NCBI RefSeq assembly: GCF_963921235.1
Contig: NC_086108.1
Span: 84,942,001 to 85,006,000 of the forward strand
Length of the DNA: 64,000 nucleotides
Direction of reading: 5' to 3'
DNA from: Mobula hypostoma
Taxonomy: Eukaryota
The notes below the pieces were generated by a model. That model worked only from the letters and a program-made list of their open reading frames with translations, was not told the DNA's origin and did no database searches. Position numbers and translations under genes: made by a program. Shown here piece after piece: positions 259 through 41,521 of the stretch. The stretch's first letter is position 1; each line of letters begins with the position of its first letter.

Positions 259-2520
259 CAGTGCCTTGAAAAAGTATCCAGTACCCACAACAATTTTCAC
301 AGTTCACTGTCTCATTTTCTAAATTCAAAAATATTTTGAAGTAGGATTTTTTGAGCTAATTCACAAAACACTGTGCACCATGTCAAGTCAAAAGAAAAAT
401 ATCCAACACCTATCAACAAATTACTAAAAATTTAAAACAAAAATTGTGAGGCTTAAAAAGAATTCATCCTCTTTGTAATTTCCTCAGGTGCAATACACTG
501 GTATTCCCTTACCAACTCACCAAATTTGTTGATGTAGAAAATTGAAGGATCACCTGTTTCCAATGAGTTGATAAGAATAAATCACCCTCTCTCTGAGTTC
601 CAACAGTGCGGTAGATTTTCAACAGACCAAACCAAGATGAAGACAAAAGAGCATTCAAGACTGGTCAGGGAAATGATAATAGAGAAGCACAAATCTAGGG
701 AAGGGCACAAGACCACCTCATAGGCATTGAACATACCTCAGAGTTCAAAGCAGTTCACTGGGAAAAAATATGAAACCACAGCCACACTGTCTAGGTTAGG
801 CCACCTCTCTACACTTAGTCTCCAGAGAAGAATGGCACTTTTAAAAGAGGCCACTGTGATGCCAACAGTCATTCTTATGAGCTGCAGAAGTCAGTCGCTA
901 CAACTGGCGATAAAGTTCATGGCTCCACAATCTCCAAGGCCTTGCACAAAGAGTATTTTTTTAATTAAATACAATCATGAACAATAGCCAGATCAGAAAT
1001 GCTGATCAAGTCAACTAGTTCAATCAGATGGTTCACTGCTGCTCAGTGATAGAACACAAAAAAATCCTATGTACAATTAAGAAACATTTAAGAATAGTAG
1101 AAATACTGGAGTCATGATGATCATGATGAAGTCTGCTGGCGAGAGACATTTATACACGTGCTGTCCTCCATAATATAAAAAGATTATGGATAAAGGATAA
1201 AGTTGCAGGGTGACAAAACGTGGCAGGAGCACTTGGAATTGAAAACTAATCCCTACTGGGAGAAAACAGCACCTGTTCTTTCCGCACTGTTCTCCAGCAG
1301 TTTAAGGAATAAGTCCAGTATGTATGGAAGAGTGGCAAGGAAGAATCCCTGGCAAAAAAAATACATCCTTGCCCATAAAGACTTTGCAAAGCATCACTTA
1401 GAAGATACTCTGAAGATGTGGAAGGAGATCTAGAGGTCGGATGAGAGTAAAGTGTAAATTTTTGGCCTGAACACAAAACGCTATGTGGCGTAAATACAAT
1501 ACGAGGGGTGATTGATAACTTCGTGGCCTAAGGTAGAAGGAGTCAATTTCAGAAAACCTAGCACATTTATTTTTCAACATAGTTCCCTCCCACATGTACA
1601 CACTTAGTCCAGCGGTCGTGGAGCATATGATCCCTTCTTTGTAGAAGTGGTTCACAGTAGGGTTGATTGATAATTTCGTGGCCTAAGGTAGAAGAAGATG
1701 AGTTATACAGCTCTTGTTACATGCACGTGCAGCTCAACTCCTTGAATGAAAATGCAGAAAGTTTGAAGTTTCTCCTCATTTCCTTCTACTTTAGGTCACA
1801 AACTTATCAATCACCCTTGTTGTGGTCCACTTTCTGGAGTTCCAAGACGCCGACTTCTACAAAGAAGAGATCCGTATGCTCCACGACCGCTGGACTAAGT
1901 GTGTAAATGTAGGAAAAATAAATGTGCGAGGTTTTCTCAGATCGACTCCTTCTACCTTAGGCCATGAACTTATCAATGACCCCTCGTACTATGCATCTAC
2001 CAGGTAACATCATCCCTGCTGTAAAGTATGGTGGAGGAAGCATCAAGCTATGGGGATGGTTATCAGCAACAGGGACTGGCTATTTGGTCAGGATTGATGG
2101 GAAGGTGAATGCTGCTAGATAGTGAGAGATTCCGGATAAAAATCTGCTAGCGTCCCCCAGAAACCTTAAACGGGGGAGAAAGTTTTCTTTCAGTAGGACA
2201 ACTACCCAAAATACACTGCTACAGCAATCATGGATTGGTTTCAGATGAAGAAAACTGATGTCCTTGAGTGGCTAGTCAGAGTCCTGACCATAACCCAATC
2301 GAACACCTCTGGCACCACCACTCCCCAACTATTTTGCAAGGAAGCGTCTTCAAATTGTGCTAAGCTAATAGGGACTTATCCAAAAAGACTCTGGCTGTAA
2401 TAGCTGTGAGAGGTGGTTCAATCAAGTGCTGAGCAAAGGGAGATGAAAATACTGATATGTCAGTTTTTGAATTTTAGCTTTTCACACTTTACAACTTTCC
2501 CTTTTTGGGGGCTCTACTGT
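259..2520 (+). mobile_element. Degenerate Tc1 DNA transposon (transposase pseudogene ~637-2432) interrupted by two insertions
   Basis: Left end CAGTGCCTTGAAAAAGTAT. Reading MKTKEHSRLVREMIIEKHKS..., YGRVARKNP...FAKHHL, VKYGGGSIKLWG, SPDHNPIEHLW, with stops and frameshifts. Right end not clearly resolved. Confidence 0.85.
1502..1986. mobile_element. Mariner-derived palindromic MITE with TA target duplication, inserted in Tc1
   Basis: TA|CGAGGGGTGATTGATAAC...TTATCAATGACCCCTCG|TA. Arms encode the mariner transposase C-terminus (FYKEEIRMLHDRWTKCVNVG). Internal second TIR pair. Confidence 0.88.
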
Positions 2521-2585: not shown

Positions 2586-5033
2586 TTGTGCCTATTAAAA
2601 GTATTCACCCTCTTCCCTTGGAAGTTCTCATGTCTTATTGTTTTACAACATTGAATGACAGTGCATTTAATTAGGTGTTTTTGATACTGATCAATAGAAA
2701 AAGACTCTTTCGTGTCAAAGTGAAAACAATTTCTACAAAGTGATCTAAATTAATTACAAATATATTAAAAAATACAAAATGATTGTTTGCATAGGTATTC
2801 ACCCCCTTCCAGTCAGTATTTAGTAGATCCACCTTTGGTGGCAATTACAGCCTTCAGTCTGTGTGGATAGTTGTCTGTCAGCTTTGATCATCTGGACACT
2901 GCAATTCTTCCCCATTCTTTACAAAACCACTCAAGCTCTGTCAGATTGCATGGGGATCATGAGGGAACACCCATTTTCAAGTCCAGTCACAAATTCTCAA
3001 TTGGATTGAGGTCTGGACTCTAACTTGGCCACTCCAAGACATTAACTTTGTTGTTTTTAAGCCATTCCTCTGTAGCTTTGGCTTCATGCTTGGGGTCATT
3101 GTCTTGCTGGTGAACAAATCTTCTCCCAAGTCACAGTTCTCTTGCAAACATCTCCAGGTTTGCCTCCAGTATTTCCTTGTATTTTGCTGCATTCATTTTA
3201 CCCTCTGCCTTCCAGGGCCTGCTGCAGTGAAGCATCCCCACAGCATGACGCATACACCACCATGGTTCACGGTAGAGATGATGTGTTTTTAATGTTGTGT
3301 GGTGTTTGGCTTACAGAAAACATAGCGTTTAGTCTGATCACCAAAAAGCTCAATTTTGGTTTCATCAGACCACAGAACCTTCTTCCAGCTGACTTCAGAG
3401 TCTCCGACATGCCTTCTGGCAAACTCTAGCTGTGATTTCATGTGAGTTTTTCTTCCCCACAGTGGCTTTCTCTTTGTCACTGTCCCAGAAAGCTGTGACT
3501 GGTGAAGCACCCAGGCAACAGTTTTTGTATGCACAGTCTCTCCCATCTCAGCCACTGAAGCTTGTAACTCCTCCAGAGTTGCCACAGGTCTCTTGGTGGC
3601 CACCCTCACTTGTCTCCTTCTTGCAAGGTCACTCAGTTTTTGAGGATGGGCTGCTGTAGGCAGATTTATAGCTGTGCCATATTCTTTCCATTTCCTGATG
3701 ATTGACTTAACTGTACTCCAAGGGATATTCAGTGACCTGGAAATTTCCTTATATCCATCTCCTGACTTGTGCTTTTCAATAATCTTTTCAAAAAGTTGCC
3801 TGGGCTGTTCTTTTAAAAACGCAAACATGAGGAAATCTGCAGATGCTGGAAATTCAAGCAACACACACAAAATGCTCGTGGAACGCAGCAGGCCAGGCAG
3901 CATTTATTGGAAGAGGTACACTCCACGTTTCGGGCCAAGACCCTTCGTCAGGACTAACTGAAAGAAGAGATAGTAAGAGATTTGAAAGTGGGAGGGGGAG
4001 GGGGAGAGGGAGATCCGAAATGATAGGAGAAGGCAGGAGGGGGAGGGATGGAGCTAAGAGCTGGAAAGTTGATTGGCAAAAGGGATACAAGGCTGGAGAA
4101 GGGAGAGGATCATGGGACAGGAAGCCTAAGGCCTCCTCTACTTTCAAGATGAAGCCACACTCAGGTTGGAGGAACACCACCTAATATTCCATCTGGGTAG
4201 CCTCCAGTCTGATGGCATGGACACTGACTTCTCGAACTTCCGTTAATGCCCCTCCTCCCCTTCTTACCGGATCCCTTATTCATTCATTCATTTATTTATT
4301 TATTATTTTCCCCTTTTTTTCTCTCTCTTTTTTCTCCCTCTGTCCCTCTTACTATAACTCCTTGCCTGCTCTCCATCTTCCTCCGGGCTCCACCCCCCCC
4401 CACTTTCTTTCCCCCTAAGCTTCCCGTCCCATGATCCTCTCCCTTCTCCAGCCTTGTATCGCTTTTGCCAATCAACTTTCCAGCTCTTAGCTCCATCCCT
4501 CCCTCTCCTGTTTTCTCCTATCATTTTCGATCTCCCCCTCCCCCTCTCAAATCTCTTATTATCTCTTCTTTCAGTTAGTCTTGACGAAGGGTCTTGGCTC
4601 GAAATATCGACTGTACCTCTTCCAATAGATGCTGCCTGGCCTGCAGAGTTCCACCAGCATTTTGTGTGGGGTGTTCTTTTGTCTCCATGGTGTAGTTTTT
4701 GCCAGGATATTGACTGAGTAGCTGTTGGGCCTTCCTGATACAGGTGTATTTTTACTACAATCAATTGAAACACCTTGACTGCTCACGGGTGATCTCCATT
4801 TACCGAATTGTGTGACTTCGGAAACCAATTGGCTGCACCAGTGATGATCTGGTGTGTCATATTAAAGGGAGTAAATACTTATGCAATCAATTATTTAGTT
4901 GTTATTATTTGTAAATATTTTAGGTCAGTTTGTAGAGATCTGTTTTCACTTTGACACAAAAATAGCCAAATTAAATCCACTGTGATTCAATGTTGTAAAA
5001 TAATTCAAAGTTTTCATGTTTTAATAGGCACTG
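2586..5033 (-). mobile_element. Tc1 transposon with long TIRs; transposase pseudogene 4688-2813, split by a Penelope insertion
   Basis: TA|ttGTGCCTATTAAAA ... TTTTAATAGGCACTG|TA. ORF 3289-3903 contains IIEKHKSGDGYKEISRSLNIPWSTV and WKKVLWSDETKIELFG. C-terminus resembles KGGSTKY*. Confidence 0.92.
3815..4667. mobile_element. Penelope-like 3' fragment with inverted pseudo-LTR, ~13-14 bp target duplication
   Basis: Minus arm 3815-~4128 and plus arm ~4130-4667 (GIY-YIG C-terminus plus 3' UTR). Flanks tgggctgttctttt and tggggtgttctttt. Confidence 0.85.
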
Positions 5034-8898: not shown

Positions 8899-11800
8899 TT
8901 TTTTCTTTTCTTCATTTTTCTTTTTTTTTAAAAAACACTGCTTGGGGAGAAGGGCCTGCACTGCGCAGGCGCGTGACGTAGCGCGCCAAGGTTTAAAAAC
9001 AGACCACCATATACAGTGGGCAGCGGAGTGAGAGGGAGCACAGTGGGACAGCTTTGGCTCAACAGGCTTCGGCGAGAAAAGGCAGAGGCCAGGGTAGGTT
9101 CTGGTAAGTTTTTTGTTCAGTTTGTTTAGAGTAGAGAGAATGACAGGCAGGATGTTGGAATGCTCCTCTTGCAGGATGTGGGAAGTCAGGGAGCCCTACG
9201 GTGTCCCTGACAACAACACCTGCAAGAAGTGCATCCAGCTGCAGCTCCTAACAAACCGCGTTCGGGAACTGGAGCAGGAGCTGGATAACCTCCGGATCAT
9301 TCAGGAGAATGAGGAGATTATAGATAGTAGCTACAGGGAGGTAGTTACGCCACAGGAGCAGAGCACAGGAAATTGGGCCACTTTCAGGCGAGGGAAGAGG
9401 AAAGGGCAGGCAGAGCAGGGTTCCCCTGTGGCCATTCTCCTCAACAAGTATACCGCATTGGATACCGTTGGGGGGGATGACTTACAAGCTGCAGCAGCCA
9501 AATCTCTGGCGCTGAGTCTGGTTCTACAGTGCAGAAGGGAGGGTGGAAAAAGAGGACAGCAGTAGTGATAGGGGACTCGATAGTTAGAGGTGCAGATAGG
9601 AGGTTCTGTGGTCGTGACAGAGAATCCAGGATGGTTTGTTGCCTCCTGGGTGCCAGGGTCAAGGATGTCTCTGATTGCTTGCATGACATTCTCAAGTGGG
9701 AGGGTGATCAGCCAGATGTCATGGTGCACATCGGTACCAATGACATAGCAAGGAAGAGTGAGGAGGTCCTGGAGAGTGAGTACAGAGAGTTTGGTAGGAA
9801 GTTGAAAAGCAGGACCTCGAGGGTGGTAATCTCAGGATTGCTACCTGTGCTAGGTGCCAGTGAGGGTAGGAATAGGATGCACTGGAGGATGAACAAGTGG
9901 CTGAGGAACTGGTATAGGGGGCAGGGTTTCAGATTTCAGGATCATTGGGACCTCTTCTGGGGCAGGTGGGACCTGTACAAGAGAGACGGGTTACACTTGA
10001 ACTACAAGGGGACCAATATCCTTTCAGGGAGGTTTGTTAGTGCTATCAGGGAGGGTTTAAAGTAGATTTGCAGGGGGATGGGAACCAGAGTGCCAGAGCT
10101 GACAGTGGGGCTGGGGTGAAAATAAATGATGTCAAAAGTTCAAGCAAAGCCGCAAATAGAACGGTTGTGAGTGGTGGTAATAATCTTCTGAGGTGTATAT
10201 ATTTCAATGCTAGGAGTATTGCGGGGAAGGCAGACGAGTTGAGGGCGTGGATTGACACGTGGAATTATGACGTTATAGCAATTAGTGAAACTTGGCTACA
10301 GGAGGGGCAGGATTGGCAGCTTAATATTCCAGGGTTCCGATGTTTCAGATGTGATAGAGGCAGAAGAATGAAAGGTGGGGGGGAGGGGGTAGCATTGCTT
10401 GTCAGGGAAAATGTTACAGCAGTGCTCAGGTAGGACAGATTAGAGGGCTTGTCTACTGAGTCCTTATGGGTGGAGCTGAGAAACAGGAAAGGTATGGCCA
10501 CATTAGTGGGGTTGTATTATAGACCACCCAATAGTCAGTGAGAATTGGAGGAGCAAATCTGCAGAGAGAGAGCAGTCAACTGCAGGAAACAAAGTTGTGG
10601 TGGTAGGGGATTTTAATTTTCCACATATTGATTGGGACCCCCATACTGTTAGGGGTCTAGATGGGTTAGAGTTTGTAAAATGTGTTCAGGAAAGTTTTCT
10701 AAATCAATATATAGAGGTACCAACTAGAGGGGATGCAATATTAGATCTCCTATTAGTAAATGAGTTAGGACAAGTGACAGAAGTATGTGTAGGGGAGCAC
10801 TTTGGTTCCAGTGATCATAACACCATTAGTTTCAACTTGATCATGGATAACGATAGATCTGGTCCTCGGGTTGAGGTTCTAAACTGGAAGGTGGCCAAAT
10901 TTGAAGAAATGAGAAAGGATCTAAAAAGCGTGGATTGGGACAGGTTGTTCTCTGGCAAGGATGTGATCGGTAAGTGGGAAGCCTTCAAAGGAGAAATTTT
11001 GAGAGTGCAGAGCTTGTATGTTCCTGTCAGGATTAATGGCAAAGTGAATAGGAATAAGGAACCTTGGTTCTCAAGGGATATTGCAACTCTGATAAAGAAG
11101 AGAGAGTTGTATGACACATATAGGAAACAGGGAGTAAATCAGGTGCTTGAGGAGTATAAAAAGTGCAAGAAAATACTTAAGAAGGAAATCAGGAGGGCTA
11201 AAAGAAGACATGAGGTTGCCTTGGCAGTCAATGTGAAGGATAATCCAAAGAGCTTTTACAGATATATTAAGAGTAAAAGGATTGTAAGGGATAAAGTTGG
11301 TCCTCTTGAAGATCAGAGTGGTTGGCTATGTGCGGAACCAAAAGAAGTGGGGGAGATCCTAAATGGGTTTTTTGCGTCTGTATTTACTAAGGAAACTAGC
11401 ATGAAGTCTATGGAATTAAGGGAAACAAGTAGTGAGATAATGGAAACTGTACAGATTGAAAAGGAGGAGGTGCTTGCTATCTTGAGGAAAATTAAAGTGG
11501 ATAAATCCCCAGGATCTGACAGGGTATTCCCTCGGACCTTGAAGGAGACTAGTGTTGAAATCGCAGGGGCCCTGACAAATATATTTAAAATGTCGGTGTC
11601 TACGGGTGAGGTGCCGGAGGATTGGAGAATGGCTCATGTTGTTCCGTTGTTTAAAAAAGGATAGAAAAGTAATCCGGGAAATTATAGGCTGTTAAGTTTG
11701 ACGTCGGTAGTAGGTAAGTTATTGGAGGGAGTACTAAGAGACAGAATCTACAAGCATTTGGATAGACAGGGACTTATTAGGGAGAGTCAACATGGCTTTG

Positions 11801-13076
11801 TGCGTGGCAGGTCATGTTTGACCAATCTATTGGAGTTTTTCGAGGAGGTTACCAGGATGAAGGGTAGGCAGTGGATGTTGTCTACATGGACTTCAGTAAG
11901 GCCTTTGACAAGGTCCCGCATGGGAGGTTAGTTAGGAAAATTCAGTCGCTAGGTATACATGGAGAGGTGGTAAATTAGATTAGACATTGGCTTAATGGAA
12001 GAAGCCAAAGAGTGGTAGTAGAGGATTGCTTCTCAGGGTGGAGGCCTGTGACTAGTGGTGTGCCACAGGGATCAGTGCTGGGTCCATTGTTATTTGTCAT
12101 CTATATTAATGATCTGGATGATAATGTGGTAAACCGGATCAGCGAATTTGCTGATGATACAAAGATTGGAGGTGTAGTGGACAGTGAGGAAGGTTTTCAA
12201 AGCTGGCAGAGGGACTTGGACCAGCTGAAAAACTGGGCTGAAAAATGGCAGATGGAGTTTAATACTGACAAGTGTGAGGTATTGCACTTTGGAAGGACAA
12301 ACCAAGGTAGAACATACAGGGTAAATGGTAAGGTACTGAGGAGTGCAGTAGAATAGAGGGATCTGGGAATACAGATACAAAATTCCCTAAAAGTGGCGTC
12401 ACAGGTAGATAGGGTCGTAAAGAGAGCTTTTGGTACATTGGCTATTATTAATCAAGGTATTGAGTATAAGAGCTGGATTGTTACGATGAGGTTGTAAAAG
12501 GCATTGGTGAGGCCGAATCTGGAGCATTATGTTCAGTTTTGGTCACCAAATTACAGGAAGGATATAAATAAGATTGAAAGAGTACAGAGAAGGTTTACAA
12601 GGATGTTGCCGGGACTTGAAAAACTCAGTTACAGAGAAAGGTTGAATAGGTTAGGACTTTATTCCCTGGAGCGTAGAAGAATAGGGGAGATTTGATAGAG
12701 GTATATAAAATCATGATGGGTATAGATAGAGTGAATGCAAGCAGGCTTTTTCCACGGAGGCAAGGGGAGAGAAAAACCAGAGGACATGGGTTAAGGGTGA
12801 AAGGGGAAAAGTTCAAAGGGAACATTAGGGGGGGCTTCTTCACACAGAGAGTGGTGGGAGTGTGGAATGAGCTGCCAGACAAGGTGGTTAATGCGGGTTC
12901 TTTTTTTTTTTAACATTTAAGAATAAATTGGACAGATACATGGATGGGAGGTGTATGGAGGGATATGGTCCGTGTGCAGGTCAGTGGGACTAGGCAGAAA
13001 ATGGTTCGGCACAGCCAAGAAGGGCCAAAAGGCCTGTTTCTGTGCTGTAGTTTTTCTATGGTTTTCTATGGTTTCT
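8899..13076 (+). mobile_element. Near full-length CR1 LINE: 5' UTR, ORF1 (Zn finger plus SGNH esterase, ~9140-10065), ORF2 (APE endonuclease plus RT, ~10068-12920), microsatellite tail
   Basis: ORF1 CSSC..CKKC, GDSIVR, HIGTND, DGLHLN. ORF2 FNARS, SETW, GDFN, SDH, QHGF, GVPQGSVLGP, FADDTK. Tail (ttttctatgg)n. Flanked by aatt on both sides. Several stops and frameshifts. Confidence 0.95.
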
Positions 13077-20564: not shown

Positions 20565-23102
20565 TCTGTCCTCAGTAAGGGCCTCACGTTTGTCCCCCTT
20601 CGCCCACACCTCAGCGAGTTCCGTGTTCGCCACGATGCGGAACTTTTCTTCCGCCGTCTCCGTCTCCGAGCCTACTTCTTCGGCAAGGACTCTTCCACCC
20701 CCACCGATGACCGCTTCTCCCGTCTTCATCCCTCCTCTTCTTCATGGACACCCCGCTCTGGTCTTCTGCCTGCTCTGGATCTCTTTATTGCCAACTGCCG
20801 ACGGGACATCAACCGTCTCGACTTCACCGCACCTTGTCCCCATTCCAACCTCACTCCTTCGGAACGCTCTGCTCTCCACTCCCTCCGCACTAATCCTAAC
20901 ATTATTATTAAACCCGCTGATAAGGGGGGTGCTGTTGTAGTCTGGCGTACTGACCTCTACCTTGCCGAGGCACAGCGACAACTCGCGGATACCTCCTCTT
21001 ATTTACCCCTCGATCGTGACCCCACTAAGGAGCACCAGGCCATTGTCTCCCACACTATCAATGACTTTATCCGCTCAGGGGATCTCCCATCCACTGCTAC
21101 CAACCTTATAGTTCCCACACCCCGCACTTCCCGTTTCTACCTCCTACCCAAGATCCACAAACCTGCCTGTCCTGGCCGACCTATTGTCTCAGCTTGCTCC
21201 TGCCCCACCGAACTCGTTTCTGCATACCTCGACACTGTTTTATCACCCCTTGTTCAATCCCTTCCGACCTATGTTCGTGACACTTCTCACGCTCTTAAAC
21301 TTTTCGATGATTTTAAGTTCCCTGGCCCCCACCGCTTTATTTTCACCTTGGATGTCCAGTCCCTATATACTTCCATCCCCCATCAGGAAGGTCTCAAAGC
21401 TCTACGCTTCTTTTTGGATTCCAGACCTAATCAGTTCCCCTCTACCACCACTCTGCTCCGTCTAGCAGAATTAGTCCTTACTCTTAATAATTTCTCCTTT
21501 TGCTCCTCCCATTTCCTCCAAACTAAAGGTGTAGCTATGGGCACCCGTATGGGTCCTAGCTATGCGTGCCTTTTTGTTGGGTTTGTGGAACAATCTATGT
21601 TCCGTGCCTATTCTGGTATCTGTCCCCCACTTTTCCTTCGCTACATCGACGACTGCATTGGCGCTGCTTCCTGCACGCATGCAGAACTCGTTGACTTTAT
21701 TAACTTTGCCTCCAACTTTCACCCTGCCCTCAAGTTTACCTGGTCCATTTCTGACACCTCCCTCCCCTTTCTAGATCTTTCTGTCTCTGTCTCTGGAGAC
21801 AGCTTATCCACTGATGTCTACTATAAGCCTACTGACTCTCACAACTATCTGGACTATTCCTCTTCTCACCCTGTCTCTTGCAAAAACGCCATCCCCTTCT
21901 CGCAATTCCTCCGTCTCCGCCGCATCTGCTCTCAGGATGAGGCTTTTCATTCTAGGACGAGGGAGATGTCTTCATTTTTTAAAGAAAGGGGCTTCCCTTC
22001 CTCCACTATCAACTCTGCTCTTAAACGCATCTCCCCCATTTCACGTACATCTGCTCTCACTCCATTCTCCCACCACCCCACTAGGAATAGGGTTCCCCTG
22101 GTCCTCACCTACCACCCCACCAGCCTCCGGGTCCAACATATTATTCTCCGTAACTTCCGCCACCTCCAACGGGATCCCACCACTAAGCATATCTTTCCCT
22201 CCCCGCCTCTCTCTGCATTCCGCAGGGATCGCTCCCTACACAACTCCCTTGTCCATTCGTCCCCCCCCATCCCTCCCCACTGATCTCCCTCCTGGCACTT
22301 ATCCGTGTAAGCGGAACATGTGCTACACATGCCCTTACACTTCCTCCTTTACCACCATTCAGGGCCCCAAACAGTCCTTCCAGGTGAGGCATCACTTCAC
22401 CTGTGAGTCGACTGGGGTGATATACTGCGTCCGGTGCTCCCGATGTGGCCTTTTATATATTGGTGAGACCCGACGCAGACTGGGAGACCGCTTTGCTGAA
22501 CATCTACGCTCTGTCCGCCAGAGAAAGCAGGATCTCCCAGTGGCCACACATTTTAATTCCACATCCCATTCCCATTCTGACATGTCAGACACGGCCTCCT
22601 CTACTGTAAAGATGAAGCCACACTCAGGTTGGAGGAACAACACCTTATATTCCGTATGGGTAGCCTCCAACCTGATGGCATGAACATTGACTTCTCTAAC
22701 TTCCGCTAGGCCCCACCTCCCCCTCGTACCCCATCTGTTACTCTTTTTAATGCACACATTCTTTCTCTCACTCTCCTTTTTCTCCCTCTGTCCCTCTGAA
22801 TATACCTCTTGCCCATCCTCTGGGTCACCCCCCCCCCCGTCTTTCTTCACGGACCTCCTGTCCCATGATCCTCTCGTATCCCCTTCTGCCTATCACCTGT
22901 CCAGCTCTCGGCTCCATCCCTCCCCCTCCTGTCCTCTCCTATCATTTTGCATCTCCCCCTCCCCCTCCAGCTTTCAAATCCCTTACTCACTCCTCCTTCA
23001 GTTAGTCCTGACGAAGGGTCTCGGCCTGAAACGTCGACTGCGCCTCTTCCTATAGATGCTGCCTGGCCTGCTGCGTTCACCAGCAACTTTGATGTATGTT
23101 GG
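20565..23102 (+). mobile_element. Penelope-like retroelement (Neptune-type): RT, Cys linker, GIY-YIG endonuclease and 3' pseudo-LTR; 5'-truncated and young
   Basis: Stop-free frame from ~20556 to 22283 (LSKGLTF, KPADKGGAVVVW, FYLLPKIHK, GRPIVS, DVQSLYTSIP, GVAMG, RYIDD, FLDL, YYKPT). After a frameshift: CKRNMCYTC and VIYCVRCSRCGLLYIGET. Ends NIDFSNFR* at 22709. Confidence 0.95.
22999..23040 (+). ncRNA. Minimal type I hammerhead ribozyme, intact core
   Basis: cagttagtc-CTGACGA-agggtctcggcct-GAAA-C-GTC-gactg: CUGANGA and GAAA boxes, GUC cleavage triplet, stem I gtc/gac, palindromic ACGU stem III. Confidence 0.85.
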
Positions 23103-24269
23103 TTGTATTATTAGGAGTAACATTTTGAAGTTGAAACAAGGTTAGACTGAATCAACACAATTAAGTTATCATTAAATTACTTCCACAAAGCTAACAATGG
23201 AGGCTTTCAAATACTGTACAAAGAATAAACCAAGAGGAAGCATACACTAAGAAAATAGAAACTCTTTATTCCAGAGACACAAGTGACTGCAGAGTCTCTA
23301 GTCTGGATCAAAAATAAATTGGTGTAGGAACTCAGCAGGTCAAGCAGCATCCTCTCCACATCCATTTTATCAAGGCTTTTCACTATTCTATAGGTTTCAA
23401 TGAGGTCACCTTCTTCTCCAGAATTCTAGTGAATATACCCAGAGCCATGAAAGGCTCTCATTATTTAGCGGCATAGCGTCCCAAATAAACGAAGGGAATT
23501 CCACCTATTTTCTCAATCAGCTTTAAGGGTTGTCCCAAATAAGCAGCTGTGCTGATTAACCAATGGCTCAAATAATGTGGGTGAGAAAGTGGAAACAATT
23601 GTTAAAAAAGGAGGAGAAAATACAGATATGCAGCCACTCTGTATATTTAGGTATGAAAGCACAAATGTACGGCTAGCTTAAATCTGTTCTAATGTAACTC
23701 AAGCCACTACTTGCTAAAGTAAATAGCAAAACACCTCAAACATGAACCTTTGTTTTACAAATTTAATACAAGAACAGGTTTAATTATCAGATGGTAAACT
23801 TTAAAGCATGTTTTGCCCTTTTTAAGAAACCCTTTAACACATGAAAGACATCAGATTAAAAGGCTTTGAAACATAAGAACCACACCAATAAACAGAAATA
23901 AGTAAATTAAAAGGTTCCTAAAATATTACAATTCATTCTGAAAAAGTTGTGGAATGTTTGGATAACATTGCATGTCTATGGGACTACATAAAGTAATTAA
24001 AGTAAGGTACATTCTCATTTTAACATGTCCATTCTGCCTGAAACCAGATAATTCTTCTCTTAAAAAAATCTTCTCTAAAGCAACACTAGAACTTGAAGAC
24101 TTTGATGATAGTTTATAAATGAAAGGCCTGATACCTGTCTCCAGGAATTGCTGCCCATGGTATCTCCAGTTTCATACCTACTCGTTTAAATTTGCTGACA
24201 CAAAACATCCAAGACACTCATATTTCCTTACAACATATAAGGACAACCATTTTAGGCCACTGACTCCAT

Positions 24270-27495: not shown

Positions 27496-28437
27496 ACAAC
27501 ATCTCAAATTCTACAGTTAAATATCCCAAAAAGCAGTCCATCACGTCAATGTTCTCTGGGCCATTATTCAGTTGCTAAAATTTTCATCTAATGTTCCCTT
27601 TTCCCAGCAAATATTTCCTCAATTCTTTTGCCTCAACAGTGTATACTTATACATGGCTACAAACATTCAAGAACTCTATTCTTCCAGCTTTAACCACTCA
27701 CGCATTCCCCACTTCTTTTGCCCCTCTATTTACAGTCAAGCCATAGCCTGGAATTTTCAATATCCCCATCTCCACTGAATAAAACAGACGAAGGAGCCAA
27801 GCAAGTGTGAAACCCCTGCAGGATGAGCAGAGGAACTGATAACAGGAACAAGGAAATGGCAGATAAATTAGGAAGTAAAAGCTAGTCATTAAGAAAAGCT
27901 TAATGTGACCAAATCAAGTCAAAATGGTATCATCACACCGGCCAAATATAATAGAGTTCTTCAAAGAGATAACAAGTAGAGTCAACAGAAGGCATTTGAT
28001 GGGTGCTACATGTAAGGCTGATACATACAGATGTTGGCACAGACTGAATGGGCCGAAGGGCATGTTTCTGTGCTACAGTGTTCTGTGCAATAAGAGGTCA
28101 AGATATGAGAGGAAATGTCTTAGCATGGTCTGAAAACTAGCTATTGCATTAGAGTCAGAATATACTCATTGGCCGCTTTATAAGGTACCTCCTGTACCTG
28201 ATCAATTGGCTACTGCGTGTGTGTTTATGGTCTTCTGCTACTATATTGCCCTCTGACCTCATTCATTTTCAAGGCATTTTCACTCACAGAACTGCTGCTC
28301 ATTGGATTTTTTTTTGCTGTTTCTCACAAGTTTTTCTGTAAGCCTTAGAGAGTGTTGTGCATGAAAATCCCAGAAATCAGCAGTTTCTGCGATACTCAAT
28401 GGTCCCCATCTGGTACCAACAGTCATTCTATGGTCAA

Positions 28438-28670
28438 CAAACAAGAGAAAATCTGCAGATGCAGAAAATCCAAGCAACACACACAAAGTGCTGGAGGAAC
28501 TCAGCAGCTGGGCAGCATCTATCGAAAAGAGTACAGTCGACATTTCAAGCCAAGACCTTTCACAAGTCCAAATGTAGGGTCTCGGCCTGAAATATCAACT
28601 GTTTACAGGTACTCTTTCCCCTAGATGCTGCCCGGCCTGCTGAGTTCCTCCAGCATTTTTGTGTGTATTG
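28438..28670. mobile_element. 233 bp Penelope-derived hairpin element with perfect 13 bp TSD
   Basis: TSD attctatggtcaa at 28425-28437 and 28671-28683. Two inverted pseudo-LTR ends joined at a degenerate hammerhead. Confidence 0.85.
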
Positions 28671-28808
28671 ATTCTATGGTCAAAGTCACTTGGACCACAT
28701 TTCTTCCCCATCCTGATGTCTGGTCTGAACAACTGAACCTCTTGATCATATCTTCATATCTTTATGCATTGAATTGCTACCACGATTTGCAGATTAGATA
28801 TTGCATTA

Positions 28809-28945
28809 CAGACAAGAGAAAATCTGTAGATGCTGGAAATCAAAGTAATATACACAAAATGATGGAGGAAACCAGCAGGCCAGGCAGCAGCTATGGAAAA
28901 GAGTAAGCAGCCAACATTTCGGGCCCAGACCCTTGATCAGGATTC
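28809..28945 (-). mobile_element. Short Penelope pseudo-LTR tail insertion with ~12 bp TSD
   Basis: Flanks gatattgcatta and gatatttgcatta. Body runs from the hammerhead 5' stem to the full tail. Confidence 0.7.
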
Positions 28946-30394
28946 GATATTTGCATTAACAAGCAGGTGTAAAAGTGTACCTAATAAAATGGTCACTGAG
29001 TGTATACAGCACAGGATTCTGGTCATGTTAATAGTGGAGAAGGTAATCATGGGCAATGGCAGAAGGAACCTTCGAATGTGTTGGTGATGCATTTTGAGAA
29101 GACTAAAATTGGTGGAATATATGCAGGTAATGAAAGGACATAGAAATAGCATAGAGACCTTGGTGTACTAATTCAAGGATCTTTGAAGATGACAGTTTTG
29201 GTAAATAAGGTGATTTGCCTTCCTACTTGTTGTACTTAACTTGTGAGTCATGCACAAGAACATGACGATCCAACTGTACTGCACTGATTTGCAATTTCTC
29301 CGCATTTAAATAATAATCTCCCTTTAGATTCCTTTTGCTGCAGAGCATGACCTCACACTTTCTCACATTAAACTCTGCTTGCCAAGTTTTCACCCACTCG
29401 CTCATTCTATCCATATCCTGTTGCAGAGTTCAAATATGCTCATTGAAATATGCCCTCCCAATTATTTGTGTGACATAGGCAGATTTGGATACTTTATACT
29501 CTGTCCCCACATCCAGGTCATGAATATAAATAGCAAAATAATTGAAAGCCAAGAGCTTTTATTTGAGAGCTCCACAGGTCAGATCCTTTCTTCCTGCAAA
29601 TGACCCCTTTACACAGTGGCTATTTTATTAGGTACACCTGCTTTTAATACAAATATTTAATCAGCCAATCATGTGGCAGCAACTCAATGCACAAAATCAT
29701 GCAGACATGGTCAAGAGGTTCAGTTGCTGCTCAGACCAAAAATCAGATTGGGGAGGAAATATGATCTAAGTGAATTTGACCATGGAATGATTGATGATGC
29801 CAGGTGGGGTGGCTTTGACTATCTGAGAAACTAATGATCTCTGGTGATTTTCACTCACTACAGTCTCTAGTTTATAGAGAATGGCATGGAAAAGCAAAAA
29901 AAAATCCAGCAAGCAGTAGTTCTGTGGCTTTGTTAATGAGTGGGGTCAGAGGAGAATGGACAGACTGAGAAATGCCACATTTGGATCATAGTTCATTTAC
30001 AATACTGACCAAGGCCTGGATATGATTATAATGAAAAAATGAAATTATGCAATCAAACATCTTGAATGAATATGCTTTGAAGATATCAAATGTAGTCTAT
30101 CCCTGATAATTTGAAGCCTCTGATAATCTTAGTAACATAACTCAAAATGAGAGCCTGAGTATGAATTGTTCAGCATTCACTTATCTGATAAATTCACTTC
30201 ATTATAAATGAATAAAAAGAATGGGGATTAGGCCTTATGTGACCCAGGTTTCTGGCTAGCATGATCACAAGTGAAGAGTCTGAAATTTTCTTTCTTCTTC
30301 TTTGCAGCTTGAGTTTTAGCTTAACATATGTTTTTCCAAGGGAAAATCAAAAAATTCCCTAGAAAAATCTGTTTCCCATACACCAAGTTACTCT

Positions 30395-33200
30395 AAGAAA
30401 TAGGAGCAGAATTAGGCCATTAGACCCAACCAATCTTCTTCAACATTCCATCATGACAGATGCATTGTTCCCCTCAAACCTATTCTCATGCCTTCTCCCC
30501 GTACTCTTTAACAGCCTAGTTTATCAGGAACCTATCAAACTCTGTCTGAAACATGCACAATGACTTGCACTGCACAGCTATCAGTGGCAAGAAATGCCAC
30601 AGATCCACCACCCTCTGGCTAAAGAATTTTTTTTCCTCATCCCTGTTCTAAATGGACATCCCTCTATTCTGAGGCTCTGCTCTTTGGCCCTAGACTCCCC
30701 CTTTAAAGAAAACATCCTCTCCACATCCACTATGGTTAGGCTTTCAATATTCAATAGATTTCAATGACATCCCTTCTCATTCTTCCAAACTCCAGCAAGT
30801 ACAGGCCCAGAGGCAAATGCTCCTCATATGTTGGCCCTTTCATTCCTAAAATTGCTCTTGTGAACCTTCTCTGGACCCTCTCCAATGCCAACACATCGTT
30901 TCTGAGATAAGGTGCCCAAAACTGATCAGAATACTCCAAGTGCAGTCTGGCTAATTCCTTATAAATCTGCAGCATGACATCCTTGCTTTTGCATTATAGT
31001 CTTCTCAAAATGAACGCTGACATTACATTTGCCTTCCTCACCACAGACTCGAGCTCCAAGTCAACCTTTACAGAGTCCTGCATGAGGATTCCCAAATCCC
31101 CTTGGAAATCAGCACAGGTGCACCACAAGACTATGTTCTTAGCCCCCTGCTCTACTTGCTTTACATTTATAACTGTGTGGCTAAGCACAGACTCAATGCT
31201 ATATTCAAGTTTGTTGAGGAGAACACTGTTGGATGACGAATCAAAGGTGGTGACATATCAGTATATATGATGGAGATTGAAAATTTGGACGAATGGTGCC
31301 ATAACAACAGCCTTTTACTCAATGTCAGCAAGACCAAGGAGCTGACTACTGACTTCAAGAAGAAGAAACCAGATGTCCATGAGCCCGTCCTAATTGGAGG
31401 AGCAGAGGTGGAGAATGTCAGCAACTTTAAATTCCTCAGTGTTGTTATTTCAGGGAACCTGTCCCTGACTCAGCACACAAGGATGATTACGAAGAAAGCA
31501 TAGCAGTGCCTCTACTTCCTTAGGAGTTTGTGAAGATTCAGCATGACTTCTAAAACCTTGGCAAACCTATAGATGTGTGGAGAGTATAATGACTGTCTAC
31601 ATCACAGCCTGGTATGGAAACAACAATGCTCTTCAACAGAAAATCCTAAAAAAGTAGTGGATATGGCCCAGTCCATCATAGGTAAAGCCCTCCCACCACT
31701 GAGCACATCTACAAGAAGTGGTGTTGCAGGAAAGCAGCATCCATCATCTGGGAACACCACTACCCAGGACCTGCTCTCTTCTTGCTGCTACCATCAGGAA
31801 GGTATAGGAGCATCAGGACTCAATCACCAGGTTAAGGAACAGTTATTAACCCTCAACCATTAGGCCCTGGTACCAAAGGGGATAACTTCACTTGCCCCAT
31901 CATCATAAAGATCCCACAACCTATGGATTCACTTTCAAGGACTCTTCATCTCATGTTCCATTTTTTAATGCTTATTTATTTATTATTATTTCTTTCTTTT
32001 TGTATTTGCAGTTTGTTGTCTTTTGTACACTAGATGAACAAAAGACAAATGGTCTTTCATTATGGTAATTATATTATGGATTTATTGAGAATGCCCACAA
32101 GAAAATGAATCTCAGAGTTGTGTATGGTGACATATATGTACTTAGATAATAAATTTACTTCGAACATCTGGATTTTGAATATTTTCCCGCCATTTAGAAA
32201 ATAGTCCATGTCTTTATTCCTTCTACCAAAGTGCATGACCACGCACTTTCCTGCACTACATTCCATCTGCCACTTCTTTGCCCATTCTCCCAATCTGGCT
32301 AAGTCCTGAAGGTCCTGCTTTTCAGCTTTCTAACCTAACTCCCTATTTTCTCTCTTTAGGACATTCTCCCTCTTCCTACCTATATCATTTGTATCAATAT
32401 GTACCATGACTTCTGGCTGCTCACCGTCCCTATTTAGAATGCTGTGGACCTGACCTGAGACATCCCTGACCTCGGCACCTAGGAGACACCATGCTATCTG
32501 GGTGGCTCTGTCATGTCCACAGAATCTCCTGTCTGCTGCTCTAACCACAGAATCTCCTATCACTACTGCATTCTCTTCTCCCCAACTTCCTTTCTGAGCC
32601 ACAGAGCGAGACCTGGTGCCAGAAAGCTGGTTGCTGTGGCTTTCCCTGCTAGGTTGTTCTCCAGCCCACTTCACAGCATACAAAACGGTATATGTATTGA
32701 AGGGAATAGCCACAGGGGTACTCTTCACTGGTTGCCTACCCCCCTAATTGATCCTGACTATCACACAGGTACCTGCCTCCTGCAACTTAGGGGTGATTAC
32801 CTCTCTGTAGCTCCGATCTATCACCTCCTCATTTTCTATATGAGCCGAAGGTCATCCAGCTGCAGCTCCAGTTCCTTAAGACGGTCTCTAAAGAGTTCCA
32901 ATTCGGTGCACTTCATACAGATGAAGTTATCAGGGAGACTGGGGTCTCCCAAAGTTCCCACATCTCACACAAGGAATATAACACAAATTCTGGACTCATT
33001 CTCAGCGCACTAGCTACGTACTAACAGAAAAAAGCAGCTTACTAGAAACGTACTTAGAAACTTCACCCTGCTTGCCCAAGCCTGTTGAGCCGTAGCCTGG
33101 CCAGTCTAACACTGTCTGTTCCCACAATGGCTTCTCTACTTACACGTTGGTTCTTTTCATTGGCCCCTGCCATGTGCCCAATGGATCACTGCATCCTGCT
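30395..33200 (-). mobile_element. Internally deleted CR1 (ORF1 esterase remnant ~32320-33010 fused to RT 3' part), interrupted by Rex1
   Basis: VVIGDSVVRAADRRFCG, VHIDTNDIG, WQMECSAGKC, LARLHLEYSDQFWAP. Confidence 0.85.
31104..32165 (+). mobile_element. Rex1/Babar LINE 3' fragment nested in CR1
   Basis: WCHNNSLLLNVSKTKELTTDFKK, VSNFKFL; tail gataataaatttactt. Confidence 0.85.
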
Positions 33201-36299: not shown

Positions 36300-38922
36300 A
36301 ATATATTGGCGAGATCCAACGCAGGCTGGGAGACTGTTTCACTGAATACCTACGCTCTGTCTGCCAGAGAAAGCAGGATCTCCCAGTGGCCACACATTTT
36401 AATTCCATGTCCCATTCCCATTCTGATAATGTGTATCCACGGCCTCCTCTACTGTCAAGATGAAGCCGCACTTCATCTTAGCAAGGGCCTCACTTCTCTC
36501 CCCCTCTGTCCACACCTCAGTGTGTTCCATTTCCACCATGACGCTGAACTCTTCTTCTGTTGCCTATGTTTCCGAGCCTACTTCTTTGGCAAGGATTCCC
36601 CTCCCCCTACTGATGACCTCTTCTCCGGTCTTCAACCCTCCTCCTCCTCCTGGACACCCTGCCCAGGCCTTCTACCTGCACTCGATCTTTTTATCTCCAA
36701 CTGTTGCCGAGACATCAACCGTCTCAACTTCACCATTCCTCTCTCCTGTTCCAAACTCACTCCCTTTGAACACACTGCCCTCCACTCTCTCCGCACTAAT
36801 CGCAACATCACCATCAAACCCGCTGACAAAGGTGGTGCTGTAGTAGTCTGGCAGACGGACCTCTACCTCACTGAGGCCAAATGGCAGCTCTATGACACCT
36901 CCTCTTACTTACCCCTGGAACAGGATCCCACCAAAAAACATCAAACCATTGTCTCCCGTACCATCACCACCCTTATCAACTCCGGAGACCTTCCATCCTC
37001 AGCCACTAAACTCATAATTCCCACACCCCGTACCGCTGGGTTTTACCTCCTCCCCAAGATCCACAAGCCTGACTGTCCCGGTAGACTCATAGTTTCTGCC
37101 TGCTCCTGTCCCACCAAACTTGTATCTGCCTACGTGGACTCCATTTGTCACCCATAGTTCAGTCCCTCCCCACCTACATCCGGGATACACCCCATGCCTT
37201 CCACCTCTTCAATAACTTCCAGTTCCCCGGTCCCAACCGCTTCATTTTCACTATGATGTCCAATCCCTATACACCTCCATTCCCCATCAAGAAGGCCTCA
37301 AAGCCCTCCGCTACTTTCTGGATAATAGACCTCACCAGTTCCCCACCACCATTACCTTCCTCCAGTTGGCGGAACTGGTTCTCACACTCAATAACTTCTC
37401 TTTTGGCTCTTCCCACTTTCTTCAGGCTAAGGGTGTAGCTATGGGAACTTGCATGGGCCCTAGCTATGCCTGCCTCTTCGTTGGTTACGTGGAACAGTCT
37501 GTGCTCCAAACCTATTCTGGTACTGCTCCCCAACTTTTCCTTCAGTACATTGACGACTACATCGGAGCTGCTTCCTGCACCCATGCTGAGCTCATCAATT
37601 TCATCGACTTTACTTCAAACTCCACCCAGCCCTCAAATTCACTTGGTCTATCTCGGACACTTCTCTCCCTTTTCTCGATGTCTCGGTCTCCATCTCTGGA
37701 GACAGACTGTCCACTGACATCTTCTACAAGCCCACTGACTCTCATAACTACCTCGACTATACCTCTTCCCACCCCGCCACATGCAAAAATGCCATTCCCT
37801 ATTCCCAGTTCCTCCGTCTCCGCCGCATCTGCTCCCAGGACGAGGTTTTCCATTCCAGGTTATCTCAAATGTCCTCTTTAAGGATCGTGGTTTCCCTTCT
37901 GCTGTCATCAATGATGCCCTCACCTGCATCTCCTCCATTTCCCGCACTTCAGCCCTCACTCCATCCTCCCGCCACCACAACAGGGACAGAGTTCCCCTTG
38001 TCCTCACCTACCAACCCCGCCAGCCTCCGGATCCAGCACGTTATCCTCCGCAACTTCCGCCACCTTCAACAGGACCCCACCACCAAGCACATCTTTCCCT
38101 CTCCACCCCTCTCCACTTTCCACAGGGATCGGTCCCTCCCCACGGATCTCCCACCTGGCACTTATCCCTGTAAGCGGAAGTGCTACACCTGTCCCTACAC
38201 CTCCTCTCTTGCCACCATTCAGGGCCCCAAACAGTCCTTCCAGGTGAGGCAACACTTCACTTCTGAGTCTGTTGGGGTCATCTATTGCATCCGGTGCTCC
38301 CAGTGCAGCCTCCTCTACATCGGTGAAACCCGACGCAGATTGGGGGACCGCTTCGTTGAGCACCTCCACTCCATCCACCACAATAAACAGGATCTCCCGG
38401 TAGCCACCCAATTCAACTCTGCTTCCCATTCCCATTCAGATATGTCCATACATGGCCTCCTCTACTGCAATAATGAGGCTAAACTCAGGTTGGAGGAGCA
38501 ACACCTCATATACCGTCTAGGTAGTCTCCAGCCCCTTGGTATGAACATAGAATTCTCCAACTTCCAGTAATTCCCTCCCCCTCCCTTCCTTTATCCCTAT
38601 CTCACTCTGCCCCCTCCCCCAGCTGCCTATCACCTCCCTTATATTTCCGCCACTTTCTACTACCCATTGTGTTTTCCCCTATTCCTTCTTCACCTTTCCT
38701 GCCTATCACCTCCCTGCTTCCCCTCCCCCACCCCTTTATCTTTCCCCTTACTGGTTTTTTCACCTGGAACCTACCAGCCTTCTCCTTCCCACTCTCCCCC
38801 CACTTTCTTTATAAGCCTCTGCCCCTTCCCTCTACAGTCCTGACGAAGGGCTCCAGCCCAAAACGTCGACTGATCGTTTCAACGGATGCTGCCTGACCTG
38901 CTGAGTTCCTCCAGCATGTTGT
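36300..38922 (+). mobile_element. Second-subfamily Penelope-like element (RT plus GIY-YIG, decayed), preceded by a GIY-YIG fragment at 36300-36475
   Basis: LSKGL, KPADKGGAVVVW, FYLLPKIHK, GVAMG, QYIDD, CKRKCYTC, VIYCIRC..LYIGET. Degenerate hammerhead at 38835-38872. Confidence 0.93.
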
Positions 38923-38925
38923 GAG

Positions 38926-39440
38926 CGAAGCCACACTCAGGTTGGAGGAACAACACCTTATATCCCGTCTGGGTAGCCTCCAACCTGATGGCATGAACAT
39001 TGGCTTCTCAAACTTCCATTAATGCCCCACCTCCGCTTCGTACCCCATCCGTTATTTATTATTATATATTTTTTTTCTCTCTCTTTTTCTCCCTCTGCCC
39101 CTCTCATTATACTCCTTGCCCATCCTCTGGGATTCCACTCTCCCCCTTTCTTTCTCCCTAGGCCTCCCGTCCCATGATCCTTTCATATCCCTTTTGCCAA
39201 TCAACTTTCCAGCTCTTAGCTTCATCCCTCCCCCTCCTGCCTTCTTCTATCATTTTGGATCTCCCCCTCCCACTTTCAAATCTCTTACTATCTCTTCTTT
39301 CAGTTAGCCCTGACAAAGCATCTCGGCCCAAAACGTCGACTGTACTCTTCCTATAGATGCTGCTTGGCCTGCTGCATTCACCAGCAATTTTCATGTGTGT
39401 TGCTTGAAATCCAGCATCTGCAGATTTCCTCGTGTTTGCG
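38926..39440 (+). mobile_element. Penelope 3' fragment (endonuclease C-terminus, pseudo-LTR, full tail)
   Basis: EATLRLEEQHLISRLGSLQPDGMNI. Degenerate hammerhead 39301-39342. Confidence 0.85.
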
Positions 39441-39530
39441 CATTCACAAAAGGAAGGTATGAGTTTAAGCAACACACATCAAAGTTGCTGGTGAACACAG
39501 CAGGCCAGGCAGCATCTCCAGGAAGAGGTA

Positions 39531-39572
39531 CAGTCGACATTTCAGGCCGAGACCCTTCGTCAGGACTAACTG
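39531..39572 (-). ncRNA. Minimal hammerhead ribozyme with stem III ACGU changed to AUGU
   Basis: Reverse complement cagttagtcCTGACGAagggtctcggcctGAAATGTCgactg. Confidence 0.7.
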
Positions 39573-41479
39573 AAGGAAGAGTGAGTGAGGGATTTGAAAG
39601 TTGGAGGGAGAGGGGGAGGGGGAGATCCAAAATGATAGGAGAAGACAGGAGGGGGAGGGATAGAGCCGAGAGCTGGACAGGTGATAGGCAAAAGGGGATA
39701 CGAGAGGATCATGGGACAGGAGGTCTGCTGGGAAGAAAGATAAGGTGGGGGGGACCCAGAGGATGGGCAAGAGGTATATTCAGAGGGACAGAGGGAGAAA
39801 AAGGAGAGTGAGAGAAAGAATGTGTGCATAATTATAAGTAACAGATGGGGTACGAGGGGGAGGTGGGGCCTTAGCGGAAGTTAGAGAAGTCGATGTTCAT
39901 GCCATCAGGTTGGAGCCTACCCAGACGGAATATAAGGTGTCGTTCCTCCAACCTGAGTGTGGCTTCATCTTTACAGTAGAGGAGACCATGGATAGACATG
40001 TCAGAATGGGAATGGGATGTGGAATTAAAATGTGTGGCCACTGGGAGATCCTGCTTTCTCTGGCGGACAGAGCGTAGATGTTCCGTGCCTATTCTGGTAT
40101 CTGTCCCCCACTTTTCCTTCGCTACATCGACGACTGCATTGGCGCTGCTTCCTGCACGCATGCAGAACTCGTTGACTTTATTAACTTTGCCTCCAACTTT
40201 CACCCTGCCCTCAAGTTTACCTGGTCCATTTCCGACACCTCCCTTCCCTTTCTAGATCTTTCTGTCTCTGTCTCTGGAGACAGCTTATCCACTGATGTCT
40301 ACTATAAGCCTACTGACTCTCACAGCTATCTGGACTATTCCTCTTCTCACCCTGTCTCTTGCAAAAACGCCATCCCCTTCTCACAATTCCTCCGTCTCCG
40401 CCGCATCTGCTCTCAGGATGAGGCTTTTCATTCTAGGACAAGGGAGATGTCTTCCTTTTTTAAAGGAAGGGGCTTCCCTTCCTCCACTATCAACTCTGCT
40501 CTTAAACGCATCTCCCCCATTTCACGTACATCTGCTCTCACTCCATCCTCCCGCCACCCCTCTAGGAATAGGGTTCCCCTGGTTCTCACCTACCACCCCA
40601 CCAGCCTCCGGGTCCAACATATTATTCTCCGTAACTTCCGCCACCTCCAACGGGATCCCACCACTAAGCACATCTTTCCCTCCCCTCCGCTCTCTCTGCA
40701 TTCCACAGGGATCGCTCCCTACGCAACTCCCTTGTCCATTCATCCCCCCCATCCCTCCCCACTGATCTCCCTCCGGGCACTTATCCGTGTAAGCAGAACA
40801 AGTGCTACACATGCCCTTACACTTCCTCCCTTACCACCATTCAGGGCCCCAAACAGTCCTTCCAGGTGAGGCAACACTTCACCTGTGAGTCGACTGGGGT
40901 GATATACTGCGTCCGGTGCTCCCGATGTGGCCTTTTATATATTGGCGAGACCCGACGCAGACTGGGAGACCGCTTTGCTGAACATCTACGCTCTGTCCGC
41001 CAGAGAAAGCAGGATCTCCCAGTGGCCACACATTTTAATTCCACATCCCATTCTCATTCTGACATGTCTATCCACGGCCTCCTCTACTGTCAAGATGAAG
41101 CCACACTCAGGTTGGAGGAACAACACCTTATATTCCGTCTGGGTAGCCTCCAACCTGATGGCATGAACATCAACTTCTCTAACTTCTGCTAAGGCCCCAC
41201 CTCCCCCTCGTACCCCATCTGTTACTTATTTTTTATGCACACATTCTTTCTCTCACTCCTTTTTCTCCCTCTGTCCCTCTGAATATACCTCTTGCCCATC
41301 CTCTGGGTTCCCCCCACTTATCTTTCTTCCCAGACCTCCTGTCCCATGATCCTCTCGTATCCCCTTTTGCCTATCACCTGTCCAGCTCTTGGCTCTATCC
41401 CTCCCCCTCCTGTCTTCTCCTATCATTTTGCATCTCCCCCTCCCCCTCCAACTTTCAAATCCCTTACTCACTCTTCCTT

Positions 41480-41521
41480 CAGTTAGTCCTGACGAAGGGT
41501 CTCGGCCTGAAACGTCGACTG
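41480..41521 (+). ncRNA. Minimal type I hammerhead ribozyme, intact core
   Basis: cagttagtcCTGACGAagggtctcggcctGAAACGTCgactg. Confidence 0.85.

Follow-up and report, generated by a model that had tools for sequence, protein, structure and literature searches.

Hammerheads of Penelope-like elements

Minimal hammerhead ribozymes of Penelope-like elements (PLEs) are a described kind (Cervera and De la Pena 2014, PMC4209133). They are of type I, lie in the pLTR and have a helix I of 4-5 bp, an unpaired base between positions 9 and 10.1 that is a hallmark of the class, and a palindromic stem III (15.2-16.2) without loop 3; they have been reported for fish Xena, Poseidon and Neptune elements, and occur mostly as dispersed single motifs of truncated copies, with opposite-strand pairs 100-700 bp apart. 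The one PLE tested together with its protein, according to Frangieh et al. (2024, PMC11167929), is the Anolis Poseidon element PAc, where the hammerhead is near the pLTR end and two internal reverse transcription (RT) start sites past the cut define an optional tail of 30-40 bp, both target strands being extended. As reported there, this hammerhead cuts only with the protein present, its mutants still insert in vitro, and RNA ends at the hammerhead site were not found. According to Arkhipova et al. (2013, PMC3846280) and Craig et al. (2021, PMC8557442), EN+ PLEs insert as head-to-head inverted arms with a tail on one arm only, and PMC3846280 favours self-priming on an antisense template for such inversions. 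Type I hammerheads derived from PLE pLTRs are also present in non-LTR retrozymes, whose survey included one chondrichthyan genome (bioRxiv 10.64898/2026.07.22.740005). The in vivo role of PLE hammerheads is a question raised in PMC8557442 and PMC11167929.

The motif described here, from a ray, is known in kind since 2014 (PMC4209133), has all the class features listed above, and is in itself ordinary. Cartilaginous fish are not among the hosts named in PMC4209133, whose supplements may list them, and a search for literature combining ribozyme, Penelope and elasmobranch found none. The ray motif has a stem II of 4 bp, versus 7-8 in Schistosoma, and its youngest subfamily has G10.1-U11.1 where the PLE hammerheads of PMC4209133 have G10.1-C11.1. 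The ray element shares with PAc the position of the hammerhead, two putative start sites and the optional tail; however, PAc is of the Poseidon clade and its ORF starts inside stem II, whereas the nearest AUG of the ray element is 21 nt after the cut, and the RT start region is AC-rich in PAc and UG-rich in the ray (PMC11167929). The inverted arms and the single tail are as in EN+ PLEs, but TSDs are 9-13 bp in the ray as against 8-10 bp, and two ray insertions comprise the hammerhead and tail only (PMC3846280, PMC8557442). Retrozymes are head-to-tail tandem repeats (bioRxiv 10.64898/2026.07.22.740005), while the ray copies are dispersed or inverted, and a head-to-tail tandem array of hammerhead units was not found in the window, i.e. 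the whole stretch of 64,000 nt analysed. For a vertebrate Neptune-type family that is both young and very abundant, the positions of 5' and 3' ends with respect to the cut can be counted over thousands of insertions, and these counts test cleaved versus uncleaved templates, as well as twin priming, without bench work.

A probable Neptune-type element of a ray

The reference copy of the motif lies at the end of a Penelope-like element, whose parts upstream of the hammerhead are as follows.

20565-22709 (+): 5'-truncated Penelope-like ORF with RT to about 22253, CX4CX2C linker, GIY-YIG with CCHH, and two frameshifts (Pfam, motifs)
22710-23002 (+): pyrimidine-rich 3' UTR of the pLTR, subfamily-specific (subfamily comparison)

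The ORF stop is at 22707-22709 (+), and the hammerhead follows about 300 nt downstream on the same strand; this position behind an RT/GIY-YIG frame bears out the earlier note, in which the hammerhead had been assigned to a Penelope pLTR. The element frame shows the RT motif DKG and then the C-terminal GIY-YIG with CCHH in copies that are truncated and frameshifted. The RVT_1 match of the 20565-22709 frame has an E value of 1.5e-5, below the gathering score, and the sister copy at 40.8 kb has a GIY-YIG match with E 4.9e-5 (Pfam). The ORF of the 22999 copy lacks everything before residue 179 when compared with a homologue of 889 aa, and it carries two frameshifts, so that this copy of the element is dead. 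Among the best 120 of 2203 RT protein matches, the closest is from Mobula (92% over 70% of the query), followed by Hypanus (88%) and Chiloscyllium (71%), the remainder being at 44-58% and, where named, from invertebrates, so that the best matches are elasmobranch proteins and agree with the elasmobranch host proposed earlier from the letters alone.

The linker reads CX4CX2C in the copies at 22.3 and 40.8 kb and CX3CX2C at 38.2 kb, and the linker motif is also found in 60 of 84 homologues that have an endonuclease end. A CX2-5CXXC linker between RT and C-terminal EN marks Neptune and Nematis in PMC8557442, where Neptune is paraphyletic. The previous designation as Neptune-type is thus supported by a feature that Neptune shares with Nematis, and the element is probably an abundant Neptune-type Penelope-like retrotransposon of a ray. 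At least three element subfamilies are present in the window. That at 36.5-38.9 kb has an ORF 76% identical and an unrelated 3' UTR, with 78% identity in the hammerhead and the stretch downstream of it; the putative ribozyme block is shown by this comparison to be conserved across subfamilies with unrelated 3' UTRs.

From the AUG 21 nt past the cut site, older copies have a frame that stays open through the tail (3919, 58341 and 52760, with AUA in the last), and this frame is shifted in 22999, 39301, 39531 and 41480, the youngest copies included. It may be the start of the ORF (41537-41615 and homologous stretches); no homologue beginning like this frame is present among the best 120 of 2203 matches. 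In rotifers, the initial 12-22 codons lie within the pLTR and tail (PMC3846280).

The motif and its copies in the window

The 42-mer at 22999-23040 (+) matches on inspection the description given in the earlier note, with the order stem I, CUGAnGA, unpaired A, stem II, GAAA-CG-UC.

23003-23007 (+): stem I 5' strand, pairs with 23036-23040
23008-23014 (+): core CUGACGA, C3 to A9 (core-pattern match)
23015 (+): unpaired A between 9 and 10.1 (predicted fold)
23016-23027 (+): stem II of 4 bp with a 4-nt loop, G10.1-U11.1 wobble in the youngest subfamily (fold prediction)
23028-23035 (+): GAAA, palindromic stem III ACGU (23031-23034, zero loop) and C17 (core pattern, fold prediction)
23035/23036 (+): predicted cut
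23036-23040 (+): stem I 3' strand (fold prediction, covariance-model comparison)
23041-23109 (+): conserved stretch from the cut site to the short-class 3' end, with AUG at +21 (copy comparison)

Stem I has 5 bp, one of them U-G, in the 22999 copy, and 5 bp in the 41480 copy. The palindromic ACGU claimed for stem III is indeed present and loopless. In copies with U11.1, an alternative A-U register without the bulge is possible in place of the unpaired A. An ungapped scan of the 64-kb window with the 42-mer as query, allowing up to 14 mismatches, gives 16 motif copies, eight on each strand: 3919-, 4572+, 17778-, 22999+, 28534-, 28560+, 28908-, 38831+, 39301+, 39531-, 41480+, 43800-, 49302-, 52760+, 58302- and 58341+. 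The motif is present at all 11 places listed previously, although the place given as ~28530-28600 holds two inverted copies (28534- and 28560+) rather than one; the copies at 17778, 28908, 49302 and 58302 are additional. The exact core pattern has three matches, at 23008, 41489 and 58350, a number reached in none of 100 shuffles (mean 0.00). These are the three copies said before to keep the core, which they do; however, stem I of the 58341 copy is damaged, being reduced to three of five pairs, and only 22999 and 41480 are whole, with core, palindrome, cleavable 17 and stem I.

With CUGANGA ... GAAA ... UH retained in three of 16, the copies in the window are mostly decaying remnants without a trace of cutting. 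Differences number 11 at nine CpG sites, compared to eight at about 32 other sites, and this concentration at CpG is as for neutral relics. In all three core-intact copies the canonical C at 11.1 is replaced by U, giving a G10.1-U11.1 pair. C is found at this position in seven of the 16 copies, and U11.1>C, which reaches 26-77% of depth at the homologous 41508 in four sequencing runs, is the only hammerhead position varying among 40 of 192 variant rows. The replacement of G-C by G10.1-U11.1 in the youngest subfamily hints that activity is not tightly required.

A covariance-model search, suggested before as a check, gave no match in the window at E≤1 with the curated Rfam hammerhead models. 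Two Rfam miRNA matches far below the gathering score were traced to an inverted repeat in tail-to-tail arrangement at 39.3-39.55 kb. A covariance model built from 56 metagenome motifs, none from the window, places six window copies at the top (E 6e-5 to 0.014), a ranking that is partly by construction. A further match of the covariance-model search, at 45702-45764 (E 0.028), lacks stem II and GAAAC on inspection, and is regarded as chance.

Conservation and covariation in relatives

The relaxed core pattern finds at least 121 loci in metagenomes. In 15 of the 121 listed, a PLE C-terminal match ends no more than 250 nt upstream on the same strand, and six more have PLE matches placed otherwise, many loci being short. 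The exact 33-nt pattern has no match in metagenomes, and the relaxed pattern none in viral contigs. Since the metagenome core is fixed by the search pattern, its conservation carries no weight. For the four positions of stem I, 260 of 368 cells are paired (92 distinct motifs among the matches listed), as against 166.7±8.4, and at most 193, in 5000 shuffles, with neighbouring registers lower; the pairing count is inflated by kinship among the motifs, which come from 124 usable matches among those listed, chance matches included. Pair counts in alignment A1 are biased, as 53 of its 56 rows were chosen for stem I pairing (three chosen rows were dropped and three others added), and the 260 of 368 is the unselected test. 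Position 17 is free in the pattern and is non-G in 78 of the 92 motifs among the matches listed. The identification of the motif as a minimal type I hammerhead, made in the earlier note, is therefore borne out by the core and stems in the window and by stem I covariation in the metagenome relatives, and on these sequence features the repeated 42-base motif is taken to be a putative ribozyme of this type belonging to a Penelope-like element.

Seven metagenome loci (L031, L035, L037, L055, L078, L095 and L120) have motifs with a longer stem II and two extra stem III bases, which would move the cut by two; no PLE link is seen at these loci. Three others (L054, L062 and L108) each contain one motif on either strand, an arrangement that resembles the inverted pairs in the window.

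Contigs from four runs of four organisms, not on record as RNA, were aligned to 40900-41680. Among the best 24 of 2035 loose-end rows, loose contig ends lie immediately ahead of the first A of stem I (41485) in all four runs (122, 78, 13 and 440 records), and behind 41522, just past stem I, in three of the four. Similarity to other subfamilies thus sets in at the start of stem I in each run and is lost directly after stem I in three. In run X22, many contigs join 41605-41610 (the tail end) to 41528-41536 (the post-cut start), and possibly represent tail units that this organism carries as short tandem or inverted repeats.

Insertion structure and the template RNA

The copies other than the reference element are arranged as follows, with the arms of inverted pairs given in brackets.

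3806-4680 (unstranded): head-to-head pair in a Tc1-type relic, 9-bp TSD 3806-3814 / 4672-4680 (tailed arm with hammerhead 3919-, G at 17; short arm with 4572+)
28425-28683 (unstranded): head-to-head stub pair, 13-bp TSD 28425-28437 / 28671-28683 (28534- tailed, 28560+ short)
28809-28949 (-): solo stub of hammerhead and tail (alignment); more stubs at 17778- and 49302-
36477-38926 (+): older subfamily copy with 76% identical ORF and unrelated 3' UTR (alignment); hammerhead 38831-38872 has G12>A, and C-G in place of U-G in stem II
38927-39438 (+): pLTR fragment with tail, hammerhead 39301 decayed (alignment)
39458-41627 (unstranded): one insertion of an inverted short-ended arm and a direct tailed arm, TSD 39458-39469 / 41616-41627 (short arm 40083-39467 with 39531-; tailed arm 40078-41615 with 41480+, core intact)
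43733-44911 (-): 5'-truncated copy, hammerhead 43800 decayed, short end (alignment)
51976-52898 (+): copy of a third, older subfamily, hammerhead 52760 decayed, tailed (alignment)
58239-58494 (unstranded): head-to-head stub pair, 12-bp TSD 58239-58250 / 58483-58494 (short arm with 58302-; tailed arm with 58341+, whose core is intact and stem I damaged)

In the region 36301-41627, four to five Penelope pieces from two subfamilies are clustered, nested or adjoining. TSDs were sought for the solo copies 20565-23109 and 43733-44911 and none were found.

All 16 copies run across the cut site, with no copy starting or stopping at it. Past the cut, 3' ends are at +63 to +74 in eight of the 16, at +99 to +108 in seven and at +50 in one, where the copy is interrupted by another fragment; the 3' end of the 41480 copy is defined by its TSD. 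Two extra fragments start past the cut, at about +17 and +43, which leaves 0 of 18 beginning or ending at it. The copies of the window thus point away from a cleaved linear template. As they span the site and none ends at it, we infer that they came from RNA continuous across the cut site, either uncleaved or re-ligated, and primed once per target strand. All four inverted pairs are single insertions, with TSDs of 9, 13, 12-13 and 12 bp, and in each a short arm is joined to a tailed one; under independent draws, a single tail in every one of the four would still arise with a chance of about 6%. For two pairs it is proved by the TSDs that nothing but hammerhead and tail was inserted. Seven stub copies start 22-33 nt (one perhaps 40) upstream of the cut in local alignments; three of the seven start at -30, the base after YAG, an ambiguous placement, as 58341 can also be read as having a 5-nt deletion. 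The pattern of ends fits internal RT initiation of the kind described in PMC11167929.

We consider it fairly probable, taken as a whole, that the motif is the minimal hammerhead of a Neptune-type PLE of a ray and that the copies derive from site-spanning RNA by internal twin priming. The motif would be kept by selection on master elements, and the cut after GUC would depend on pairing of two motifs by way of ACGU and/or on refolding of the RNA by the protein of the element, with cutting slow or late. Target-primed reverse transcription would have two internal starts, at about +65-70 and +100 counted from the cut, on a template presumed continuous across the site, and one priming per target strand would yield a short arm and a tailed one. 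As to the window, its copies would be passive relics, and the two that are whole are oriented antisense to the host gene.

Continuous templates could also arise through a circle, as in the model of PMC4209133, where tandem hammerheads cleave, the unit RNA is circularised, and RT on the circle restores the site. This likewise predicts that copies span the site, as 16 of 16 do, accounts for partial tandems, and agrees with core and palindrome being kept across subfamilies; it does not predict seven stubs stopping 22-40 nt upstream of the cut, and the anole hammerhead is reported to be dispensable in vitro with RNA ends not seen (PMC11167929). On balance we regard the circle as unlikely. It comes closest to the earlier view that a catalytic RNA processes the transcript of the element, of which the motif and its context stand, while the evidence from the window leans towards an uncut template. 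Judged from motif and context, hammerhead processing of the transcript is plausible.

Predicted folding and alternative roles of the motif

The best predicted fold of the monomer is a rod in which G5-A6-C7-G8 pair with C15.2-G16.2-U16.1-C17 (P 0.98, -11.0 kcal/mol), and which is predicted to be inactive. The computed energy of the double hammerhead is -11.5 kcal/mol, versus -22.0 for two rods and -30.3 for a rod dimer, in a model that omits core contacts; because the double hammerhead is far less stable than the rods, unaided cleavage of dimers may be negligible. The rod lock is a lead offered by modelling, and would fit the low in vitro activity reported in PMC4209133 and PMC6765202. Among 68 related motifs, 39 form it at P≥0.7, and none of the 18 that have A7 and U17 does.

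In an alternative reading, the motif would be a nearly silent catalyst kept as a structured signal for the RNA of the element, i.e. a protein-binding rod or a mark of the 5' end or splice acceptor. U11.1 in the youngest subfamily and stubs that begin in the 5' half of the motif are in keeping with this, as are the P of 0.98 and the 39 of 68 relatives; however, 29 of the 68 are without the lock, including all 18 with A7 and U17, and the full catalytic core is kept with non-G at 17 in the 78 of 92 motifs among the matches listed. A YAG follows a pyrimidine run in the stem I 5' strand of three subfamilies (23003-23005, 38835-38837 and 52764-52766), where it could be a splice acceptor or initiator, and the Drosophila Penelope intron ends at this place (PMC4209133). 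Against this, a GT..AG joint into the stem I site is absent among the best 15 of 149 joints in four sequencing runs, and the whole UTR is pyrimidine-rich, so that an acceptor-like look comes cheaply. A role purely as structured signal seems to us quite improbable.

In a further reading, doubtful but possible, the hammerhead would be an auto-inhibited switch as well as the 5' boundary mark of the element RNA. The core strand of the monomer would pair with its own cleavage-site strand, so that the RNA stays whole while RT primes twice (+65-70 and +100), once per target strand, and priming on the 5' copy of these sites would end in run-off where stem I begins (a transcription start or splice acceptor), giving the many 100-135 nt stubs of hammerhead and tail. 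If true, the genomic copies would document on a very large scale at which sites PLEs prime and run off, and also how rarely the ribozyme fires.

In the stretch 41537-41601, one 5' strand has two alternative partners, one before each end class, and short and tailed RNAs could by this prediction form different hairpins. Folding z-scores of motif and tail are -1.5 to +1.2, and not significant.

The host gene and other contents of the window

A Pfam scan of 392 frames gives I-set matches in two that lie outside repeats, and these identify the host gene.

8139-7994 and 7301-7160 (-): host exons, first Ig domain of a LAR-family receptor tyrosine phosphatase (Pfam I-set, AG/GT ends)

The best matches of the exons are PTPRS, PTPRD and PTPRF (E 2e-29 to 2e-27). 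No further host exons are seen among the 392 frames, a scan that short or non-Pfam exons would escape. The earlier note had placed all copies in one intron, and this is corrected here to at least two. As the phosphatase gene is on the minus strand, the three core-intact copies are antisense to it. That the intronic copies act on the phosphatase pre-mRNA is very improbable indeed: eight copies do lie in the host sense direction, but core, stem III and cleavable 17 are together kept in none of these eight, versus three of eight antisense (Fisher p=0.2), and the CpG-concentrated decay described above (11 differences at nine sites, eight at about 32) is like that of neutral relics. The copies show no sign of an effect on the host gene.

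Relics of other transposable elements are scattered through the window. LINE relics with esterase ORF1 (GDSL), APE and RT pieces, which we take to be CR1/L2-type, are at 9098-12356 (+), 42709-43398 (-) and 32330-32743 (-), and another RT-bearing LINE is present in fragments at 60869-61891, 42151-42600 and 49571-49843. Tc1/Sleeping Beauty-type transposase relics are found at 3292-3810 (-) and 819-965 (+), the former being split by the Penelope insertion at 3806-4680.
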